The notes under the pieces: generated by a model | What the model was told of the DNA's origin: nothing | Databases searched by the model: none | The model's input: only the letters and a program-made list of their open reading frames with translations | Shown here: positions 3,582 through 21,781 of the stretch, one piece after another | Layout of the letters: every line of letters begins with the position of its first letter | How positions within the stretch are numbered: the first letter of the stretch is position 1 | IMG/VR virus record: IMGVR_UViG_3300020409_001194 | Coordinates: 1 to 64,000 of that record | Source of the DNA: a virus | Lineage: Duplodnaviria; Caudoviricetes | DNA length: 64,000 nucleotides | Reading direction: 5' to 3' (one strand) | Program-made: the position numbers and the translations under genes

Positions 3582-4310
3582 TTATTTTACTAAATTGAAA
3601 TGTCGTTCATAGACATGTAGGTTTTGAACTTGCCATACTATCTGGCCAGGCTTACATTGTATATCTTGGCATAAACGCGTAAGTACTGTTTTTTGCCATG
3701 CAAAATCATTGCGATAGCCGTATATGACATCGTTAGAACGCATTTGAACTACACAGTCAAGTAAGTCATTACGTTTGTAATATGTGACAGCATTGGTACA
3801 TATAAAATCTGACTTACCATTTTCATTGTATTCTTTCCATATAGATGGGCGAGTATAGATCATGGCTGCACGCCTTGAGTCTGGATTGTCAAGCAATTCT
3901 TCGACTACATGTTCGTATTGATTGTAGAATAAATCATCGTATATAAGCTTGCCATAATTAGAATTGATATTACCCCAAGGATCAGCAGCTAGTAGCCATG
4001 CTTGAGGTGGTGAATTGACACCATCTTTATCTTTACCTTCAGGACCATATATATCATATATGCTGGTTGACATAGAATCATACCAATCAATTTCATAGTC
4101 AATGTATTCTTTATTAGGAATACCAAAGATCGCTGGTTCGTCAGCTATAAAAGAAGCACCAATTAATTCTATAGTCTTAGAACCAGATCGATCCTTGGTA
4201 AACTTTTCTTGATTCAGTTCACTAATAAAGTGAGATCTGATATCAGAAACTTTTGGATGTAGTTTAGTCTTCGTTGAAGATTTTTTCGAGAATTCCAGTA
4301 TTTGTCCCAT
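3582..4310 (-). CDS. gp42: dCMP hydroxymethylase (T4 gp42-like, thymidylate synthase fold)
   Basis: KTIELIGASFIADEPAIFG, INSNYG, NPDSRRAAMIYTRPS, SDFICTN, MRSNDVIYGYRNDFAWQ, LHVYERHF closely follow T4 gp42 as recalled, including the dCMP-specifying Asp. Start uncertain. Confidence 0.9.
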   Translation of the reverse strand: MGQILEFSKKSSTKTKLHPKVSDIRSHFISELNQEKFTKDRSGSKTIELIGASFIADEPAIFGIPNKEYIDYEIDWYDSMSTSIYDIYGPEGKDKDGVNSPPQAWLLAADPWGNINSNYGKLIYDDLFYNQYEHVVEELLDNPDSRRAAMIYTRPSIWKEYNENGKSDFICTNAVTYYKRNDLLDCVVQMRSNDVIYGYRNDFAWQKTVLTRLCQDIQCKPGQIVWQVQNLHVYERHFNLVK

Positions 4311-12247: not shown

Positions 12248-12511
12248 TTATACTAAGCCTTGCGCAATTGCTTTGTAGCCTGCTGCTACTACGGCACGAG
12301 TTGGAGTACCCATACGGTATCTCAAAGCTCTTAGTCTGCTAGATTTAGCAGGTCTGTTTCCATAAATAGCAAAACCTTTATTTCTAAGGTTAGCAACTAC
12401 AGCAGTTGGGTTTGCCATGTTAAATCTGTCTCTCATTTGAGCAACAGTTAACTCAGCGCCATTTGAAAGAGCATCAATTACTTTCTGCTCTTGCGATTTT
12501 GTTTTAGCCAT
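12248..12511 (-). CDS. Small winged-helix-like conserved phage protein
   Basis: MAKTKSQ start with AAGGAG RBS; LT..Q...RF...NP.A.V..LR..GF.IY, YRMGTPTRAVVAAGY. Confidence 0.6.
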   Translation of the reverse strand: MAKTKSQEQKVIDALSNGAELTVAQMRDRFNMANPTAVVANLRNKGFAIYGNRPAKSSRLRALRYRMGTPTRAVVAAGYKAIAQGLV

Positions 12512-12658
12512 ATCAGTTTTCTCCTTACTTAGTGGTCTAAATAATATGTTAAATAATTTTAACATCACGAATAGATTATACTCTTTAATCGATTTTTTTT
12601 TATATTCTCTTAAAGTGGGTAAATATGTCCGCGGGTATACACGGGTAATAAATACTGT

Positions 12659-13972
12659 ATGATGAAATGGTTGCTACTTCCTGTAGCCTTAACAATATCC
12701 GCGATCGCAGCTTTCTATTCAATCTATGGATTAGTAGCAATCTTCGCAGCGGCAGTAATACCTATTATTATCATGGGTGTGGCCCTTGAGATAGGTAAAC
12801 TAGTATCTGTTGTATATCTACATCAATATTGGGAGGAAACTAAATTACTCTTAAAGAGCTATCTAATAGTGGCTGTCGCACTCTTAATGTTTATTACATC
12901 ATTAGGTATATTTGGATTTTTGTCAAAAGCACATGTAGAACAAGCATCTCTATCAGAAGAACAGATAGCTTTAATAGAACAGTTAGAAGATAAAGAGATT
13001 AGATCAGAATTAAAGATTGAGAGATGGGAGAAAGAACTTACAAAGCTTTTAAACAATGAAGATACACGTGTAGACACTCTCATAGGAAATGAGCAAGAGC
13101 AACTTAATAACATATATGATAGAATTGAAAGAGAAAAGAATTCTGCCAATGAAGCATACAACCAGAAAGTAAGAACTATAAATGAAACCATTACTGGTTT
13201 TGGTTCAAATGCTAGAAAGACTGAGCAGATTGAAATAGCTAATGCAGAATTAAAGAAAACAATAAATGATATTGATGCTAAATATAAAGATGAGATAAGT
13301 GAATTACAAGATGTAATTAAAGGTTATAGAAATCAAGTCACTGAAAAAACAGATGACATAGATATAAAGATAGAAGAACTAGAAACACGCATTGAGAGTG
13401 AACAGAAAATTATTGATGTTGTCATAGAAGAAAAAGCAGTTTATGAAAAACAATACAGAGCGCTTGAAGCAGAAGTCGGCCCGATTAAATATATTGCGGA
13501 ACTCATCTATGGTGAAACTGACAAGAGTTTACTTGAAGATGCTGTAAGATGGGTTATTATAATATTGGTTATTGTGTTTGACCCTCTAGCGGTTGCGTTA
13601 TTAATAGCATGGAATGATATTATAAAACGCGAATCTCCAAGGCCTAAGCCAAAACCAACAGAACCAGAACCTACTCTTAACGAGTTAGCAGAAAAAAAAA
13701 CTGAAGAACCCGAAGAAGTAGAACCTGAGATTGATAAGGATTATGAGAAAAATACTTATCACAATGTTTTAGGCGTCAAAGTAAAAGAGAATCCTAAAAC
13801 ATTAAAAGAATTTATGAAAGAAACACCCGATTTCTTTGCTCAATTGGCTGATGAAATGGGTGGAAGAATAGATTATGATAGTGAAGCGGCTCAGATAGAA
13901 GTTCCTGAAGATGTATTGGAACAACTACCTGATGGTACTTATAGAAAGAAAGTGAGCCGTACTAGAATATAA
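12659..13972 (+). CDS. Membrane-anchored coiled-coil protein
   Basis: Three N-terminal TM segments, long coiled coil, EAEVGPIKYIAE, TM with VFDPLAV, Pro/Glu-rich tail. Confidence 0.7.
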   Translation: MMKWLLLPVALTISAIAAFYSIYGLVAIFAAAVIPIIIMGVALEIGKLVSVVYLHQYWEETKLLLKSYLIVAVALLMFITSLGIFGFLSKAHVEQASLSEEQIALIEQLEDKEIRSELKIERWEKELTKLLNNEDTRVDTLIGNEQEQLNNIYDRIEREKNSANEAYNQKVRTINETITGFGSNARKTEQIEIANAELKKTINDIDAKYKDEISELQDVIKGYRNQVTEKTDDIDIKIEELETRIESEQKIIDVVIEEKAVYEKQYRALEAEVGPIKYIAELIYGETDKSLLEDAVRWVIIILVIVFDPLAVALLIAWNDIIKRESPRPKPKPTEPEPTLNELAEKKTEEPEEVEPEIDKDYEKNTYHNVLGVKVKENPKTLKEFMKETPDFFAQLADEMGGRIDYDSEAAQIEVPEDVLEQLPDGTYRKKVSRTRI

Positions 13973-13991: not shown

Positions 13992-14273
13992 ATGAAAGAG
14001 TTTATGCTATTACTATCCGAGTTTGGGCTGCCTGTAGCTGGTGCAGTGGTAATGGGCCTGTTCATTTACATTATATTAAGATATATTTTAGATTCTGTAG
14101 TTAGTCAAACTAAAACTTTAAAATCCATAATAATGCAACTAGATAATCGTGTTAAAAACATGAATAATGATATGATAAAACTCGATATGGAAATCACACA
14201 TGTTCTTGGATTGAAACCAGATGATGTAAGAATTTCTAGATCTAATGGTAAAGAAGATGCGAGAAGAGATTAA
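13992..14273 (+). CDS. Small membrane protein (curli-cassette associated, paralog 1)
   Basis: FGLPVAGA TM helix then LDNRVKNMNNDMIKLD. Confidence 0.65.
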   Translation: MKEFMLLLSEFGLPVAGAVVMGLFIYIILRYILDSVVSQTKTLKSIIMQLDNRVKNMNNDMIKLDMEITHVLGLKPDDVRISRSNGKEDARRD

Positions 14274-14542
14274 TGAAATTGTTTATCGAAATTTTAAGCG
14301 TATATGGTTTTCCAACTTTAGCCGCAGTTGCTATGGGTTGGTTTATCTGGTTTGTATATAACTTCACAACAAAAAATATTAAAAAGAATTTAAGTGAAAC
14401 TCACACTACACTTATCGCTCTCTTAGATAGAATCAGAATGTTAGACAATGACATAATCAGATTAAGAGCTAAATTAGATGCTGTTATTCAGATGAAAGAG
14501 AACGAAAAGGTTCCAACAGAAGCAGAAGAAACTAATAAATAA
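14273..14542 (+). CDS. Small membrane protein (curli-cassette associated, paralog 2)
   Basis: YGFPTLAA TM helix then LLDRIRMLDNDIIRL; similar to preceding ORF. Confidence 0.65.
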   Translation: MKLFIEILSVYGFPTLAAVAMGWFIWFVYNFTTKNIKKNLSETHTTLIALLDRIRMLDNDIIRLRAKLDAVIQMKENEKVPTEAEETNK

Positions 14543-14545
14543 TAT

Positions 14546-15061
14546 ATGATTAAAGCACATTTTATAACAGGTGTGCTGCGAACTTGGGTTGTTATGTTAT
14601 TTGCGGTGACGTTGGCAGCCCTATCTACAACTAATCTCAACGCCAGTGAGCTTCACTTTGAGTTTGGCAACCCTGCATTCTCAAAACACGGCTACTCATC
14701 CCATGTCTTATCTATAGAACAACTCAATTATTCACGTCAAAGAGATGTAGAGAAAGATAAGAAGTCAGCCGATGCCGCTGCTCAGAGAGAAATAGACAAT
14801 ACAACAATTAATAAGTTCATTAAGAATGTTGAATCTCGTATTTATGCTAACTTATCTAAGCAATTGGTTGATAATATGTTTGGTACTAACTGCGTAAACA
14901 CATCAGAAATAACTTGTGAAACTTCAGGTACAGCAGTAGTTGAAGGTGCTACAATTTACTGGGTAAGAGATGATACAACGGAGACTATTAGTTTAACAGT
15001 CACAGATGAGACCGGTAATGTCACAACGATCACCGTGCCCATTGGAGACTTTCTATTCTAA
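14546..15061 (+). CDS. csgF: Curli assembly protein CsgF-like
   Basis: Signal peptide then ASELHFEFGNPAFS; F...VESRIYANLS.QL; ends TTITVPIG. Confidence 0.8.
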   Translation: MIKAHFITGVLRTWVVMLFAVTLAALSTTNLNASELHFEFGNPAFSKHGYSSHVLSIEQLNYSRQRDVEKDKKSADAAAQREIDNTTINKFIKNVESRIYANLSKQLVDNMFGTNCVNTSEITCETSGTAVVEGATIYWVRDDTTETISLTVTDETGNVTTITVPIGDFLF

Positions 15062-15078
15062 TAGAAGAATGAACTTAT

Positions 15079-15891
15079 ATGAAGATACTTTTAGCTATAT
15101 TACTGTCAGCAATAATTACGGGTTGTGTAAGCACACCTGACAGGATAGACTATTATCAAGATCTTCCGCCTCAACAACATGCTACACCAACATCAGAATT
15201 ACTAGTTAAGCTTCCACCATTAGATGGTGATATTATAACCATTGCAGTATATTCATTTATGGATGAAACTGGTCAAAGAAAACCTAGTGAAAAGTTCTCA
15301 CAGCTGTCAACAGCCATTTCACAAGGTGTAGATGTATGGGTAATACAAGCTTTAAAAGAAGCGGGTAATGGTACATGGTTTAAAGTTGTAGAAAGAATGG
15401 GATTGGATAATGTAATAAAAGAAAGACAACTTATAAGAAGTACAAGAGAAGCTTATGATGGAGAACAAAAGAATTCACTTAAACCTTTAATATTTGCAGG
15501 CTTAATATTAGAAGGTGGAGTTGTTGCCTATGATACTAACGTAGAAACAGGCGGTAACGGTGCAAGATACTTTGGCATTGGTGTATCCGAAGAATATCGG
15601 GTAGATCAAGTCACTGTCGCTATGAGAGTAGTTGCTGTTCAGACTGGTGAAGTTTTACTTACCGTTTCAGGTACTAAAACAATTGCTAGTCATAGATCAG
15701 GAACTGATGTTTTTAGATTCTTAGATATGGGAACTAAGGCTTTAGAAATAGAAAGCGGAGTCGCTATGAATGAGCCAGTAAATTACGCGATACGATCCGC
15801 AATTGAGTATTGCGTAATTGAAGTAATTAAACAAGGTGCAGATCAAGGTCTGTGGAAAATAAAGGAGGAAAACAATGAAACAATTCATTAA
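15079..15891 (+). CDS. csgG: Curli secretion channel lipoprotein CsgG
   Basis: Lipobox ITGC; AVYSFMDETGQRK, STAISQG, WFKVVER, ERQLIR, GGNGARYFGIG, YRVDQVTV, NEPV. Confidence 0.93.
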   Translation: MKILLAILLSAIITGCVSTPDRIDYYQDLPPQQHATPTSELLVKLPPLDGDIITIAVYSFMDETGQRKPSEKFSQLSTAISQGVDVWVIQALKEAGNGTWFKVVERMGLDNVIKERQLIRSTREAYDGEQKNSLKPLIFAGLILEGGVVAYDTNVETGGNGARYFGIGVSEEYRVDQVTVAMRVVAVQTGEVLLTVSGTKTIASHRSGTDVFRFLDMGTKALEIESGVAMNEPVNYAIRSAIEYCVIEVIKQGADQGLWKIKEENNETIH

Positions 15892-16561
15892 CCTTATATT
15901 ATTATCAGTCTTGTTTACAGGTACATTATGGGCGAATGATATATATGTCACTCAAAGTGGTAATACACTTGACTTAGATATCACACAGGATGGACAAAAC
16001 AATACTGTTGGTAATTCTACCACATCATCATCGGTTGTAGGTGCTACATCTACTATTGATATTGATCAGGTAGGAAACTCTAACGTCCTTACATTTGATG
16101 TTAACGGTGATACATACACCGGAACATTCAATGTCACAGGTGATAGCAACAATATTGACTTTAACTGTGATAGCACAGGGAACAATTCCTCATGTGCAAC
16201 AGTTACGTCCAGTATAACATGGGTAGGTTCCAGTAACGATTTAGACATCGATATTGGAGAGACTGCTGATGCCGCAAACGGTGCAGTGACTATAACAGGA
16301 GCCAGTGGTTCTGATTCAAACGTTATAGCTGCGACTGTTGATGGTACATCTGCAATCTTAACACTAACTGTAAACGGTGATACAAATAACTGGTTGATAG
16401 ATATTGATGGTAATGGAGATATTAATGGCCATACATTAATCCATTCTCATACAGGCGGTATTGCCGATGTAGATATAGTTCAAAGTGGTGTTTATGACAA
16501 CATAATAAACTTAACTACAAGCGGTAATAATGCTGATATCGATATAAGTCAAACAGACTAA
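15875..16561 (+). CDS. Secreted curlin-like repeat protein 1
   Basis: Signal peptide; repeats of I.Q.G..N / V.G..N.I.I (TQDGQNN, DQVGNSN, TGDSNN, VQSGVYDN). Confidence 0.7.
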   Translation: MKQFINLILLSVLFTGTLWANDIYVTQSGNTLDLDITQDGQNNTVGNSTTSSSVVGATSTIDIDQVGNSNVLTFDVNGDTYTGTFNVTGDSNNIDFNCDSTGNNSSCATVTSSITWVGSSNDLDIDIGETADAANGAVTITGASGSDSNVIAATVDGTSAILTLTVNGDTNNWLIDIDGNGDINGHTLIHSHTGGIADVDIVQSGVYDNIINLTTSGNNADIDISQTD

Positions 16562-17688
16562 TGAGAACTCTATACAGAGTCATTGCCTTTTTGATAGGCG
16601 CTTGTGCTTTACTCTTATATGGTAAGGAGATTAATGCACAGACTATAGGAGATGTAATTCTTCAAGAAGGCAATGCTGTTATAGAACAAAGTGGTGAAGA
16701 GAATATATCTGTTGAAGGTTTAGATGTATTTTCCTATGATGTCGTTAAGACTGGAAATGGTAAGACTGCTATATCCTTTATTGACGACACTCGCGTGGAT
16801 GTCACTGAACATTCAAAACTTATAATAGATGAGTTTGTATATGACCCTGCAAATAACAAAGGGTCACTCTCAATAAAAGCGACTTTAGGTACCGTACGTT
16901 ATGCTTCTGGTCAAATAGCAAAGAAGTATGCACAGAACGTAAATATCGAAACACCAACTGCCACCATCGGTGTAAGAGGTACTGACTTTAGTATGACTGT
17001 AGATGAGATTGGTGGTTCAACAATAATCCTTTTGCCGTCATGCGATACACGGGGTTATTGTTATGTAGGTGAAATTGAAGTAGAGACAGATGCAGGTTTT
17101 GTTATTATGAATCAAGCATTTCAGGCAACTGTAGTCACGACTGGTGAATCAAAACCAATGAAGCCAGTAATTTTAGATTTAGATGAAAACATGATTGGTA
17201 ATTTATTAATAATACAAAAGCCTCAAGAGATTGTAGCTGAGCAACAAAGAGCTGAATATAACGAAGTTGCTAATGCATTAGATATAGACTTTTTAGAATT
17301 TAATGATTTAGAAGTAGATGAATTAGAAATAGATAACGATACATGGTCAACAGGTTTAGATATAGATTTTTTAGAACAGAATTTTTTAGTAGATGTATTA
17401 GCACAAATAAACAAAGAACTTGCTAAGGCAATGAGAAGTGAGTTTGTAAAACAAGAAGAAGCTGCAATTGATGGTGTACAATTAGGTAAGGACCCAGAAA
17501 CAGGTATCATAATATTAGATGAAGACCCTGAATGGGTATATGCAAGAGAAGGTGCAGCAACATATTTTGAATTAAGATTAGATAAAGAATATGGTTATGT
17601 AATTAGTTTTATACAAGAAGATTTTGAAGTATATGACTATGAATTAGGTGGACAAGGAAATGAAATCAGGATTTACCAAAGTAATTAG
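16561..17688 (+). CDS. Secreted FecR-domain protein
   Basis: Signal peptide; D.V.TG, F.DDT.V.V.EHS.L.IDEFVYDP, IETPTATIGVRGTDF. Confidence 0.85.
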   Translation: MRTLYRVIAFLIGACALLLYGKEINAQTIGDVILQEGNAVIEQSGEENISVEGLDVFSYDVVKTGNGKTAISFIDDTRVDVTEHSKLIIDEFVYDPANNKGSLSIKATLGTVRYASGQIAKKYAQNVNIETPTATIGVRGTDFSMTVDEIGGSTIILLPSCDTRGYCYVGEIEVETDAGFVIMNQAFQATVVTTGESKPMKPVILDLDENMIGNLLIIQKPQEIVAEQQRAEYNEVANALDIDFLEFNDLEVDELEIDNDTWSTGLDIDFLEQNFLVDVLAQINKELAKAMRSEFVKQEEAAIDGVQLGKDPETGIIILDEDPEWVYAREGAATYFELRLDKEYGYVISFIQEDFEVYDYELGGQGNEIRIYQSN

Positions 17689-18388
17689 TTTTTTAATAAT
17701 TATTATTATAGCCACTATATGGTCAGATCAGGCTAAGGGCAGTGACATATATGTATCACAATCAGGAGATAACTTCACTTTAAATATAGATCAAGATGGA
17801 GATAATCATCTTATTCGTGGTTATCATAATCAAACCGCTAGTATACAAGGTAGCAATAATGATCTCAGAATTAGACAACGTTCATCTATTACAACTGGTA
17901 CATTTTCCACAGCACATGTAGATATTAATGGTAGCAATAACGACATATACATGGGTATGGGTTGGGGTACTACAAACTTTAATAACTTTAATGCTACTGA
18001 TCATCAAGAGGCTGGTAATCATAATCAAAAATTATATCTACAAGGTTCTAATAATGATATTTACATGGGTCAAAGAAATGGTTCACCAAGTCAAGCATAC
18101 AGTCCACATAATATAGATTTAAAAATATACAGTGATAATAATAATGTTGGAATATTTCAAGGTCATGATGGTTCAAAAACAATGAACTTAACTATCAATA
18201 ATGATAATAATAATGTGACTGCTTATCAATTAGGTTATAACTCCACACACAGTGCTACAATAACATTAGATGGAAACTATGGTACTAACTTATATTTGAA
18301 TCAAAACAATGGATATTCCAGTCATTCATATACACTTAATCAAACATGTATGAATTCAAATGGATGTAGTGTGACTGTAAATGACTAA
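17648..18388 (+). CDS. Secreted curlin-like repeat protein 2
   Basis: Signal peptide; SDIYVSQSG start like ORF 15875; repeated GSNND(L/I), NNNV; Asn/Gln/Gly rich. Confidence 0.7.
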   Translation: MDKEMKSGFTKVISFLIIIIIATIWSDQAKGSDIYVSQSGDNFTLNIDQDGDNHLIRGYHNQTASIQGSNNDLRIRQRSSITTGTFSTAHVDINGSNNDIYMGMGWGTTNFNNFNATDHQEAGNHNQKLYLQGSNNDIYMGQRNGSPSQAYSPHNIDLKIYSDNNNVGIFQGHDGSKTMNLTINNDNNNVTAYQLGYNSTHSATITLDGNYGTNLYLNQNNGYSSHSYTLNQTCMNSNGCSVTVND

Positions 18389-20246
18389 ATTTTTTACACA
18401 TTGGACATTTGCATTTGTCACACTCTTTATTCTTACATATATAGGATTACAAGACCCTACAATAAAAGAAACACTACGTTTAAAATCGTTTGACTTTCTT
18501 ATTCAATCACAAGAAAAATCTTTATCTGATGACATTATAATTGTAGAGATTGATGAAAAGGCAATTGAAAAATATGGTCAATATCCATTTAACAGAAGTG
18601 TATATGCAGATCTTATTGTAAAGTTAAGAGATGCTGAAGCTGGTATCATTTTATTTCCAATATTATTTTCTGAAAAAGATAGAATGGGTGGTGATGAATA
18701 CTTTGGTGATGCATTACAATATGGTACTGTAATTGCACAAGTAGGTACAACACAAATAAACAAGAATGCGGTTCCAAGAGGTGTTGCAAAGATAGGCGAT
18801 CCATTACCATTTTTATTTGAATGGCCTGGAATGTTAGGACCTATACCTGAATTAAAATCAAATGGTGTTGGTGTTATTAATACTGCACCTGAAATTGATG
18901 GTGTTGTAAGAAGAGTACCATTACTTATGAGAATAGGTGAAGATGTATACCCATCAATGGCAATTGAAATGATAAGAGTTGCAACTGGCGATCCATCATA
19001 TCAAGTAAAAGCTGATGAGAATGGTATAGTAGCTATGCGTGTACCTGGATACGCGACCATACCCACAGACATGCACGCACGGGTATGGTTAAATTATAAT
19101 AAGACCTTTGACTCTATCTCATTAGTAGATGATGACATGCATTTTGAGCTTGTTAAAGGTAAAACTGTAATAGTTTCATTAACAGCTGAAGGTTTAAACA
19201 ATGTTATTGCTACACCCATAGGTGAACAATATGCTCATACAATAATAGCAAATAACATACAAACAATTATTGATGGTGATAATATTACAAGAAATGATTT
19301 ACATTTTCTAGAACTTATAGTTGCATTCTTGATATCTGCTTGCTTCATAGCACTAGCAAGAATTGCACCTTATTGGATTATTGGCATGAGTCTTATAGGT
19401 GCATATATAGTGAGTATATATGGCACATACTATATGTTTCATCAGACAAGAGAAATGTATGATGTAAGTTGGTTCCTTATCATGATTACATTTGTAAGTT
19501 TACATTCTATCTTCAATAGATTCATATTAGAGTTTAATTTAAAACAACAGATAAGAAAACAATTTGAAAAGTATTTAGACCCAAGACAAGTTGCCATATT
19601 ACAAAAGAATCCAGATAAGATTAAACTTGGTGGTGAAAGAAAAGAAATGAGTTTCTTATTTATGGATATTGTAGGTTTTACACCAATATCAGAACATTAC
19701 AAAAATAAGAATGACCCTGAAGGATTAGTAAAAGTTATTAATGATTATCTACATCGAATGAGTAAGATAGTTCTTGATAATGGTGGTACAATAGATAAGT
19801 ATATGGGTGATTGTATTATGGCTTTTTGGAATGCACCACTTGATTGTGACAACCATGCTGAGATGGCGGTGAAGTCTGCTATTGAATGTGCTGAAGAAAC
19901 AGAAAAGATTAAAGAAGAGTTTAAAGCAAAAGGATTACCAGAAATTAATATTGGTAGTGGTGTAAATACAGGAACTTGTATTGTAGGTAATATGGGTAGT
20001 GAAATGAGATTAGATTATAGTGTTATTGGAGATGCTGTAAACTTAGCAGCAAGATTAGAAGCACAAACTAGAAACTATAAAGATAAAGATGGTAATGTCA
20101 CACCATTATTATATTCACAACACACTAAGGATTTACTTAGTAATATAGACTCTATCGAAGTGGATAAGATTAAAGTTAAAGGTAAAGAAGAGTTAATTAC
20201 AATCTATTCGCCAGTATCTACCATCTCAGCTTCTAAACCAGGATAA
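18381..20246 (+). CDS. CHASE2-domain class III adenylate cyclase
   Basis: IVEIDE...GQYPFNR, DGVVRRVPL, 3 TM helices, FMDIVGFT, IDKYMGDCIMAFW, DYSVIGDAVNLAARLE (Lys/Asp adenine-specifying residues). Confidence 0.93.
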   Translation: MTKFFTHWTFAFVTLFILTYIGLQDPTIKETLRLKSFDFLIQSQEKSLSDDIIIVEIDEKAIEKYGQYPFNRSVYADLIVKLRDAEAGIILFPILFSEKDRMGGDEYFGDALQYGTVIAQVGTTQINKNAVPRGVAKIGDPLPFLFEWPGMLGPIPELKSNGVGVINTAPEIDGVVRRVPLLMRIGEDVYPSMAIEMIRVATGDPSYQVKADENGIVAMRVPGYATIPTDMHARVWLNYNKTFDSISLVDDDMHFELVKGKTVIVSLTAEGLNNVIATPIGEQYAHTIIANNIQTIIDGDNITRNDLHFLELIVAFLISACFIALARIAPYWIIGMSLIGAYIVSIYGTYYMFHQTREMYDVSWFLIMITFVSLHSIFNRFILEFNLKQQIRKQFEKYLDPRQVAILQKNPDKIKLGGERKEMSFLFMDIVGFTPISEHYKNKNDPEGLVKVINDYLHRMSKIVLDNGGTIDKYMGDCIMAFWNAPLDCDNHAEMAVKSAIECAEETEKIKEEFKAKGLPEINIGSGVNTGTCIVGNMGSEMRLDYSVIGDAVNLAARLEAQTRNYKDKDGNVTPLLYSQHTKDLLSNIDSIEVDKIKVKGKEELITIYSPVSTISASKPG

Positions 20247-21781
20247 TAGTTCTCACCATATATTTGTCTTTGTGTGTAGTTATATACAAATGCCGCAGTC
20301 TTTCTTTCCATCTTTTCCATGTTAAGATTCTTCTGATAAGTATGTTGTAAGAAATAGTGGTCTTCTTCAATTGCAGATAATTCCATAAGTCTAAATCCAG
20401 CAACTTTTACAAAATCATTTGAAGCATAATTTAATTCAACACATTTTCTATTTGCTGTTGATGAGTTAAAGTTCTTGTGTTTCCAATATAGACCATTACC
20501 TGGAATTGGAAACTTATATCCCCATTTCTGTGCATCCTTATCAAACTTACTCATTTGCAATTCACCTGGTTTTTCATGTTGATTTATATAGAGTGGTTGA
20601 AATATCCAGTATCCTGGTTGATGTTTTACCATCCAATCCCATGTTTCTTGTAGACTCTCATTTGTTTCTCCAGGTAAACCAACAATAAGTCCTAATTCAT
20701 ATGTGACCTTATCTCCCCAATATTCCATGAGTTCTTCTAAGAATTCTTTACCTTGTCTACCATTCCAACCTTTACCAATTGCTTTTGAAGCTTCAGGATG
20801 AAAAGATTCTATGCCAAAGAATGGTGATACTAATCCTATCTCTCTTAATAAATCTTTCTGTGCTTGTCTTGCCCAGATCAAATCCATTCTATGGTAGCCT
20901 ACATACTTTAAATCGAATGGCAAGTCACTTGATATTTTTGCAAGTTCTTCCATCTTTTCCATATCTTCATTGAATGTATCATCAGTAAATACATATTTTG
21001 TGGTACCAAATTCCTCATAGTTTGCAATAAACTCGTCTTTGATTCTAGAATAATCTCTTATATAAGTACCTTTCTTTTTTCCAATCAATGGATATGAACA
21101 GAATGCACATTCAAATTGGCAACCTCTACCCATTTCCATAAGCAGTGCTTCATTAGGACTAATAGACATGCTTTGTCCTAAGTATGCACGAGTTGCCTTT
21201 TGAATATCAAATTCATTTCTTTTTCCTGTAAAACCTGACATCTCATCAAGATATTTTAGGAAACTATCTTCAGCGAAACCATGAAACTTTCTCCATTCGA
21301 AATGCATATTACCGTAATGTGTTTGTGAACCACCCATTACCCAATCTAATTGTGGATGTCTTTTTTCTAAAACATCTCTTGCTTTCATTACCCAAAACGG
21401 TTCTTCAGTTTTATTTGGAGCAGCCATCATGTTAGTAAAGTTCTGATCGAATAGCTTTCTCTTTTTTACAGGGTCATCTGAATGACCAATCTGATCACCT
21501 ACTGATGTAGTATATGTGTTTGTTTTTTCTGAACCTTTTGCTTTCTTCATCCTTACACTTGGATGCCAGAAAGATGTGCTTACACCGATACCTATTGTTT
21601 CTGGACCGATATGTTTTTCATTAATTTCTAAAAATGCTTTTTCATGTATAAGATGACAAAAGTCTATTACCTTAACATCATAACCATGTTGAATACACCA
21701 TGACGCAAGTTGATGTGGACCTATAGGCCTAATTGGAGCGAAGTCCTCTGCCAAGCAGTTCCAAATTACAAAATGCGCCAT
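20204..21781 (-). CDS. B12-binding-type radical SAM protein
   Basis: GRGCQFECAFC (CxxxCxxC), DDTFN, FGIES, LIVGLPGET; N-terminal cobalamin-binding-like region. Confidence 0.85.
   Translation of the reverse strand: MAHFVIWNCLAEDFAPIRPIGPHQLASWCIQHGYDVKVIDFCHLIHEKAFLEINEKHIGPETIGIGVSTSFWHPSVRMKKAKGSEKTNTYTTSVGDQIGHSDDPVKKRKLFDQNFTNMMAAPNKTEEPFWVMKARDVLEKRHPQLDWVMGGSQTHYGNMHFEWRKFHGFAEDSFLKYLDEMSGFTGKRNEFDIQKATRAYLGQSMSISPNEALLMEMGRGCQFECAFCSYPLIGKKKGTYIRDYSRIKDEFIANYEEFGTTKYVFTDDTFNEDMEKMEELAKISSDLPFDLKYVGYHRMDLIWARQAQKDLLREIGLVSPFFGIESFHPEASKAIGKGWNGRQGKEFLEELMEYWGDKVTYELGLIVGLPGETNESLQETWDWMVKHQPGYWIFQPLYINQHEKPGELQMSKFDKDAQKWGYKFPIPGNGLYWKHKNFNSSTANRKCVELNYASNDFVKVAGFRLMELSAIEEDHYFLQHTYQKNLNMEKMERKTAAFVYNYTQRQIYGENYYPGLEAEMVDTGE

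Follow-up and report, generated by a model that had tools for sequence, protein, structure and literature searches.

A pelagiphage-type viral curli region with FecR and CHASE2 adenylate cyclase genes in an uncultured marine T4-like phage

Genes of curli-type secretion have previously been reported from phages. The presence of csgF and csgG in pelagimyophages was described by Zaragoza-Solas et al. 2020 (PMC7029224), and those of phage Melnitz were discussed as a possible lysis-timing pore in a study whose text contains neither "cyclase" nor "FecR" (Buchholz et al. 2022, PMC9004378). A whole region comprising a type VIII secretion system (T8SS), FecR and a cyclase was then reported from podo- and myo-pelagiphages (Wittmers et al. 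2022, PMC9599517). According to this study, the region starts with one or two small genes (called histidine kinases), continues with CsgF, CsgG, CsgA/B and FecR, often includes a second CsgA/B and ends with an adenylate cyclase; CsgE, CsgC and CsgD were not found in it. An alphaproteobacterial origin was inferred and transcripts were detected in metatranscriptomes. The authors also pointed out that bacterial curli operons include neither FecR nor the cyclase; FecR was read as an iron regulator, and neither CHASE2 nor PA14 is mentioned. Here, we analyzed a region of this kind at positions 13992-20246 (+) of a 64,000-nucleotide stretch of viral DNA, referred to as the window in the following (positions 1 to 64,000 of IMG/VR record IMGVR_UViG_3300020409_001194).

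The viral curli region and its conservation

The block comprises eight plus-strand open reading frames (ORFs; 93, 89, 171, 270, 228, 375, 246 and 621 aa) between minus-strand genes. They encode two small membrane proteins (sm1 and sm2), CsgF, CsgG, a curlin-like protein (cur1), a FecR-domain protein, a second curlin-like protein (cur2) and a class III adenylate cyclase with a CHASE2 domain (Table 1). Overlaps of 1 nt were found at sm1/sm2 and cur1/FecR, of 17 nt at csgG/cur1 and of 8 nt at cur2/cyclase, and gaps of 3 and 17 nt separate sm2 from csgF and csgF from csgG, respectively. FecR and cur2 overlap by 41 nt if cur2 starts at GTG 17648 or by 29 nt if it starts at ATG 17660; the ATG, which is preceded by AAGGA, is the more likely start. 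The original prediction, made from the sequence before this analysis, had listed these eight packed genes in minus-strand surroundings, and all were found where it placed them and on the strand it gave. Its gene identities also proved right, based on Pfam for csgF, csgG, FecR and the CHASE2 cyclase (the scores of CsgF, CsgG, FecR and CHASE2/Guanylate_cyc all exceed the curated cut-offs), on curlin homology for cur1 and cur2 and on paralogy for the two small proteins. The signal peptides and transmembrane (TM) segments that it assigned could be traced to hydrophobic N-termini or TM segments and, in the case of CsgG, to the lipobox ITGC. Its list stopped one gene short, as a ninth plus-strand gene, encoding a protein of 437 aa, lies directly upstream.

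The source of the window is an uncultured marine T4-like phage related to the SAR11 phage HTVC008M. Its record comprises 108,915 bp with an estimated completeness of 61%, and HTVC008M and Melnitz (SAR11/OM43 phage group) are closest to it among the phages of GenBank. Minus-strand T4-like genes (gp32 single-stranded DNA-binding protein, gp59, gp5 and gp6) flank the block, which occupies the variable region that separates the replication module from the structural one.

The gene set, the gene order and the small leading genes all match the published pelagiphage T8SS-FecR-adenylate cyclase region, and the cassette is a further copy of this region rather than a new element. In GenBank, the same block in the same order is present in HTVC008M (KC465899, 6900-13807) and in four Melnitz records (MZ577097, 50118-56876). 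Protein identity to HTVC008M amounts to 60-75% (68% for the cyclase) for all proteins but cur2, which reaches only 32%. Compared to HTVC008M, the block is inverted relative to gp32 and cur2 is short and devoid of PA14 (246 versus 441 aa); compared to the published pelagiphage regions, the 437-aa membrane protein gene preceding the block is extra. The assumption of the original prediction that csgF and csgG of phages come without recognised substrates is superseded, since CsgA/B-like, FecR and cyclase genes had already been identified (PMC9599517). What the present analysis adds is a link between FecR and CHASE2 in cellular genomes, a lack of support for the histidine-kinase label, a hypervariable, PA14-bearing slot and the absence of a visible reader of cyclic nucleotide monophosphates (cNMPs).

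Relatives of the cyclase were detected on at least 590 IMG/VR contigs. Among the related loci with at least 6.6 kb of upstream DNA, the order csgF-csgG-cur1-FecR-(slot)-cyclase is kept in 22/22. The conserved synteny that the original prediction implied is hence found in all of these viral loci as well as in HTVC008M and Melnitz.

Two cellular modules in one phage block

Judged from gene content, the phage block joins two cellular modules, curli secretion and a FecR-CHASE2 pair, because FecR recurs beside CHASE2 and never beside csgG in the sampled cellular loci. On the curli side, comparison was made with E. coli csgBAC-csgDEFG and with the alphaproteobacterial csgF-csgG-curlin arrangement. 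Here, CsgG and CsgF of the phage fill the full profiles, and its secreted proteins with Q-x-G-x-x-N repeats are predicted to adopt a CsgA-like beta-solenoid fold. CsgG shows 40-48% identity to alphaproteobacterial and Pseudomonas CsgG, and the CsgF homologue carries a signal peptide followed by an N-terminal HFEFGNPAF motif. No match to the CsgE gate, the CsgC chaperone or the CsgD regulator was obtained among the nine cassette proteins using Pfam and NCBIfam. In contrast to bacterial curli loci, FecR and the CHASE2 cyclase are embedded in the phage block: a search up to 10 kb from csgG revealed neither in 25 cellular loci (0/7 alphaproteobacterial loci and 0/18 other loci, mostly from Pseudomonas).

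The reverse search, starting from cellular loci picked by similarity to the phage FecR protein (mostly Alphaproteobacteria), revealed a full-length CHASE2 cyclase in 10/16, located within about 2 kb in all but one. These cyclases are 27-31% identical to the phage enzyme, and two of the FecR-CHASE2 loci were confirmed by Pfam. None of the 16 loci contained csgG, csgF or curlins, and CsgG had no match in five genomes holding the FecR-CHASE2 pair. Starting from alphaproteobacterial CHASE2-cyclase loci, a FecR-like gene was detected within 7 kb in 6/20, in four of them within about 1.5 kb. A complete cassette was sought in cellular genomes and none was found.

Such clusters have also been published. 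In Campylobacterota, a CHASE2 cyclase occurs with a FecR-domain protein of the outer membrane and with a TPR protein (PMC9239204), and Burkholderia combines a LysM-FecR protein with a CHASE2 kinase (PMC5192318). In S. meliloti, smc02177, encoding a FecR-domain protein, adjoins cyaD1 and was reported as dispensable for plant-signal perception (PMC5498481). The original prediction had invoked rhizobial trans-envelope signalling by FecR and CHASE2 proteins; the genes do recur side by side in bacteria, but the rhizobial case is weaker than it claimed because SMc02177 was reported as not required for perception of the signal.

The cellular FecR-CHASE2 clusters often also encode a TPR protein, of 465-506 aa. 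A Slam-like identity of this partner was considered and not upheld, as the likeness to TPR_Slam (3/6) and SlipAM (2/6) stayed below threshold and no PDB match was obtained. Both the bacterial clusters and the phage block place an exported FecR-domain protein beside a CHASE2 enzyme, with cyclases that are 27-35% identical over their full length. The phage differs in that the TPR (weakly Slam-like) gene is missing and CsgG/CsgF and the curlins are present instead, and in that the C-terminal third of its FecR protein is not common to the cellular relatives. In two alphaproteobacterial loci, giant proteins of 1,903 and 1,364 aa headed by a FecR domain are encoded beside a CHASE2 cyclase (L140:327-6038 (-) and L141:2624-6718 (-)); their repeats are cadherin-like, Ig-like, RTX, BNR or laminin-G. 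Such FecR-headed adhesins next to a cyclase parallel the combination of FecR and fibre in the phage. In another bacterial locus, the TPR-FecR-CHASE2 cyclase cluster is directly followed by the gene of an NDH2-type oxidoreductase (L147:9250-10917 (+)) whose C-terminus carries a cNMP-binding domain; in that bacterium, this protein may read the signal locally.

Apart from a signal peptide, the FecR protein of the phage has PF04773 as its only recognised domain, and no anti-sigma N-domain or FecR_C was matched. Acidic LDIDFLE helical regions or repeats are followed by a beta-rich C-terminus, and the protein ends in a conserved NxIxIxQ, in which N367, I369, I371 and Q373 are conserved across the alignment. 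Cellular relatives align only up to about residue 235, and the C-terminal third appears, from this comparison, to be specific to the phage family. A reading of this C-terminus as a curlin repeat was dropped, as a resemblance over a 10-column motif to the mature N-terminal strand of the curlins had no statistical support. In contrast to FecIRA cell-surface signalling, the phage protein has no cytoplasmic anti-sigma domain, no FecR_C and no adjoining extracytoplasmic function sigma factor or TonB-dependent transducer; neither of the latter two was matched among the other cassette ORFs. Since its cellular relatives adjoin CHASE2 cyclases and TPR proteins and the FecIRA features were not found, the role that fits the phage FecR protein best is that of a partner to the CHASE2 sensor, not that of an iron regulator.

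The cyclase consists of CHASE2 (residues 17-314), a TM cluster (307-383) and a catalytic domain (421-607), which aligns with P. aeruginosa CyaB (3r5g), Synechocystis Cya2 (2w01) and an adenylate-cyclase derivative of the latter (6fht). According to these alignments, the metal-binding Asp residues D429 and D477 are present, as are Asn N554 and Arg R558. K473 corresponds to Lys in 6fht, the adenylate-cyclase sequence, and to Glu in 2w01, and S547 sits at the Thr of CyaB (Thr/Asp position). With all catalytic residues kept, the aligned sequence follows the pattern of class III enzymes that use ATP. Domain layout and residues match those of CHASE2 class III adenylate cyclases, and CHASE2-controlled synthesis of cyclic AMP (cAMP) is predicted.

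The two curlin-like proteins are homologous to each other (hhalign probability 99.2%, E 1.5e-19) and, as is also true of CsgF and the FecR protein, their N-termini are hydrophobic and signal-like. In most of the Pseudomonas loci examined, both match curlin genes that lie 0.7-2 kb downstream of csgG. Their scores against Curlin_rpt (PF07012) are 14.9 bits (E 0.026, four stretches) for cur1 and 13.7 bits (E 0.062) for cur2, below the cut-off of 20.7 bits. An AlphaFold2 model of cur1 based on 34 phage homologues, which show a mean column identity of 73%, is an all-beta solenoid with a pLDDT of 77.6. When it was compared with 48,161 PDB chains in an exhaustive VIA search, the top match was Pontibacter CsgA (8c50_A; Z 18.2 over 190 residues, 23% identity, rmsd 8.7), with generic beta-helices of the SufD type nearly equal at Z 17; Foldseek against the PDB returned nothing significant. 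The model is consistent with the original prediction of beta-solenoid curlin-like proteins, and cur1 is the probable major fibre subunit.

FecR and the cyclase are separated by a slot whose gene is hypervariable. In related loci, this slot encodes proteins of 111-127, about 245-266, 309-346 or 434-507 aa, and the curlin-like slot proteins examined have in common an N-terminal QDGxxN repeat, a C-terminal Cys-x(4-5)-Cys loop and a TVxQ tail. Long forms carry PA14; in the cur2 homologue of HTVC008M, both PA14 (27.7 bits) and Curlin_rpt (33.1 bits) score over threshold. A conserved subunit accompanied by a fast-changing and sometimes lectin-tipped one would fit a surface fibre with a variable minor subunit. 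At times, the slot cargo of relatives is unrelated to curlins, including a SoxY-SoxZ fusion (L117:6516-7259) and an IscU-like protein (L120:6605-7033), and one slot holds a 1,446-aa ORF without Pfam match (L108:4277-8617).

Table 1. Genes of the viral curli region, the gene directly upstream and promoter-like motifs in the window.
Feature	Positions	Strand	Length	Characteristics
ATAAATA motif	12648..12654	+		Resembles a T4-type late promoter; precedes the start of the 437-aa gene by 11 nt
Accessory membrane protein	12659..13972	+	437 aa	Four TM segments and long coiled coil; 19 nt upstream of block
Small membrane protein 1 (sm1)	13992..14273	+	93 aa	phrog_18771 E 3.4e-31; TM 11-29 and coiled coil
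Small membrane protein 2 (sm2)	14273..14542	+	89 aa	phrog_18771 E 2.2e-28; one N-terminal TM and coiled coil
ATAAATA motif	14535..14541	+		11 nt before csgF start
CsgF homologue	14546..15061	+	171 aa	PF10614 E 4.9e-12, 46.6 bits, profile 3-132 of 132
CsgG lipoprotein, outer-membrane channel	15079..15891	+	270 aa	PF03783 E 2.9e-55, 187 bits; NCBIfam CsgG E 2.4e-54; lipobox ITGC
Curlin-like protein 1 (cur1)	15875..16561	+	228 aa	Secreted-type N-terminus; beta-solenoid model; curlin homology
Exported FecR-domain protein	16561..17688	+	375 aa	PF04773 E 3.9e-9 at residues 60-154; phrog_37870 E 1e-138; signal peptide
Curlin-like protein 2 (cur2)	17648..18388	+	246 aa from GTG, probably 242 aa from ATG 17660	cur1 homologue; C-terminal Cys-x5-Cys loop
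CHASE2 class III adenylate cyclase	18381..20246	+	621 aa	PF05226 E 1.2e-41; PF00211 Guanylate_cyc E 3.3e-18

Accessory genes and promoter-like motifs

No Pfam or NCBIfam family was assigned to the 437-aa protein. Its gene lies directly upstream on the same strand in 7/22 related loci and is not an obligate part of the cassette. Phage Mosig holds a stretch homologous to this gene, and the rest of the 7.6-kb cassette query is without match there.

The small membrane proteins sm1 and sm2 are paralogues, as indicated by tblastn cross-matches and 24% identity in an alignment, and the small genes are present in 20/22 related loci. For sm1, the Atlas matches are viral hypothetical clusters only. Neither HisKA nor HATPase_c was detected in sm1 or sm2 using Pfam (to E 10), NCBIfam and the PHROGs annotation. 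We reject the published histidine-kinase label for these proteins of 93 and 89 aa, which consist of one TM segment and a coiled coil and contain no kinase domains.

Four start codons are preceded by ATAAATA at a distance of exactly 11 nt, with 4 nt between motif and codon (motifs at 3585, 12648, 14535 and 48579); the motif also occurs 21-39 nt upstream of several other genes. We do not rely on it as a late promoter because the leader would be almost absent. Scans for sigma-70 promoters and terminators gave counts no higher than in shuffled sequence, and TATAAATA was not enriched.

Downstream, a radical SAM protein of 525 aa is encoded at 20204-21781 (-), matching PF04055 and the PADLOC model PDC-M51A; the 3' end of its gene is convergent with the cyclase gene and overlaps it by 43 nt. 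A small winged-helix protein (HTH_39) is encoded at 12248-12568 (-), divergent from the plus-strand block.

A possible path from fibre to cAMP

We tentatively favour the reading that this published viral curli block of an HTVC008M-like T4-type phage acts as a trans-envelope system leading from a fibre to cAMP. During infection, CsgG (as a lipoprotein), CsgF, both curlin-like proteins and the FecR-domain protein would be exported by Sec, and CsgG with CsgF would provide the host, which lacks one, with an outer-membrane channel. Through this channel, cur1 would be secreted and stack into a beta-solenoid fibre, with the fast-evolving cur2, fused in relatives to lectin-type PA14, as a minor, tip or nucleator subunit. 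The FecR-domain protein would serve as the periplasmic partner of CHASE2, as in the bacterial FecR/TPR/CHASE2-cyclase clusters of origin, and would inform the cyclase about the state of fibre, pore or surface. The latter would then produce cytoplasmic cAMP. A trans-envelope sensor of this kind is plausible, and it is strengthened by the cellular association of FecR with CHASE2; a physical coupling of fibre, FecR protein and cyclase would be part of it. The interleaving of the genes, with FecR between the curlins, cur2 between FecR and the cyclase and start/stop overlaps, argues for one system.

Several observations weigh against this interpretation. Melnitz-infected cells showed no clumping (Buchholz et al. 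2022, PMC9004378), and FecR and the cyclase are not part of every viral curli region (Wittmers et al. 2022, PMC9599517). In the three loci encoding the closest cyclases to the phage enzyme among the 20 alphaproteobacterial CHASE2-cyclase loci (L134, L136 and L138), a FecR neighbour was not detectable. The AlphaFold2 model of the FecR protein, based on 36 close homologues, is poor (pLDDT 42.6), and profile-profile comparison of its C-terminus with both curlin families was not significant (hhalign probability 0.5%). With respect to the output, scans for the cNMP-binding domain PF00027 were negative for this record, HTVC008M (100% complete), Melnitz and relatives of 152 and 83 kb. Among 61 genomes from the likely host family, that of Pelagibacter MAG (metagenome-assembled genome) G406, many of them incomplete, PF00027 was present in three and a class III cyclase domain in two. 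These searches covered PF00027 as cAMP reader and class III among the cyclases; other cAMP-binding folds and cyclase classes were not searched. The original prediction had included reprogramming of the host via CRP, which is unsupported because the PF00027 scans revealed no visible receptor in the phages searched and only 3/61 host-family genomes have one.

It is possible, if somewhat unlikely, that the block consists of two independent adjacent modules, with curli forming adhesive fibres for "sibling capture" or superinfection shielding and the FecR-CHASE2 cyclase sensing a cue from the envelope or the environment that has nothing to do with the fibres. Curli and FecR-CHASE2 are indeed separate in all cellular loci sampled (0/7 and 0/18 csgG loci; 0/16 FecR loci), and FecR and the cyclase do not always accompany viral curli genes (PMC9599517). 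However, the genes are interleaved as cur1-FecR-cur2-cyclase with overlapping codons, their order is kept in 22/22 loci, and the C-terminal third of the FecR protein, being without cellular counterpart, suggests adaptation to a new partner.

A bolder form of the fibre-to-cAMP reading, which we regard as unlikely, is that the curli pore replaced the outer-membrane partner of a bacterial FecR/CHASE2 sensor and thereby created a fibre-coupled receptor. Its variable, sometimes PA14-tipped subunit would sense contact with neighbouring cells, other phages or glycans, and cAMP would go to a non-CRP receptor in a host lineage mostly without cAMP signalling.

Doubt also attaches to the proposal that the product of the cyclase is not a CRP signal at all and either disrupts host defence or metabolism, by mimicking or swamping cyclic-nucleotide immunity or by draining ATP, or acts on an unrecognised phage receptor. 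The lack of a cNMP-binding domain in the phages searched and its rarity in the host family would fit this, as would the match of the cyclase domain to the Pycsar PycC models (PADLOC, E 1.2e-25), which holds at the level of the fold only. Yet the class III fold, common to both, accounts for this match; CyaB and the Cya2-derived adenylate cyclase match best, and Lys occupies the ATP-specifying position, as in adenylate cyclases. The periplasmic CHASE2 input domain implies regulated signalling and not a constitutive drain, and the PF00027 scan of the record revealed no Pycsar effector.

Quite improbable, in our view, is a role of the CsgG/CsgF pore as a gated, pinholin-like channel for lysis timing (Buchholz et al. 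2022), in which the cyclase and FecR would have a regulatory function and the curlin-like proteins would serve as plugs or gates. This function was proposed for Melnitz from structural modelling (PMC9004378), CsgE as the usual periplasmic gate is matched by no cassette protein, and ATAAATA late-type motifs precede both the block and csgF. An outer-membrane pore, however, cannot depolarise the inner membrane. Furthermore, the proposal assumed that csgA/B are absent (PMC9004378), whereas two curlin homologues are present, and conserved secreted beta-solenoids together with the PA14 fusions of relatives fit a surface structure better than a gate.

Highly improbable is an uptake of iron or cofactors, in which the pore would import siderophores or cofactors and FecR would be a ferric-citrate-type regulator (one reading discussed in PMC9599517): a FecR Pfam domain is present, but without matches to the anti-sigma N-domain or FecR_C, without a sigma factor or TonB-dependent transducer match in the cassette, and with cellular relatives that adjoin CHASE2 cyclases and TPR proteins.

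Overall, the cassette equips infected cells with an envelope machine and with a second-messenger enzyme, both of which are missing from most genomes sampled in the likely host family. Should cAMP synthesis be coupled to fibre export, as in the fibre-to-cAMP reading that we tentatively favour, the phage would build a sensor on the surface of the infected cell, and this would affect aggregation, superinfection and oceanic carbon flux.

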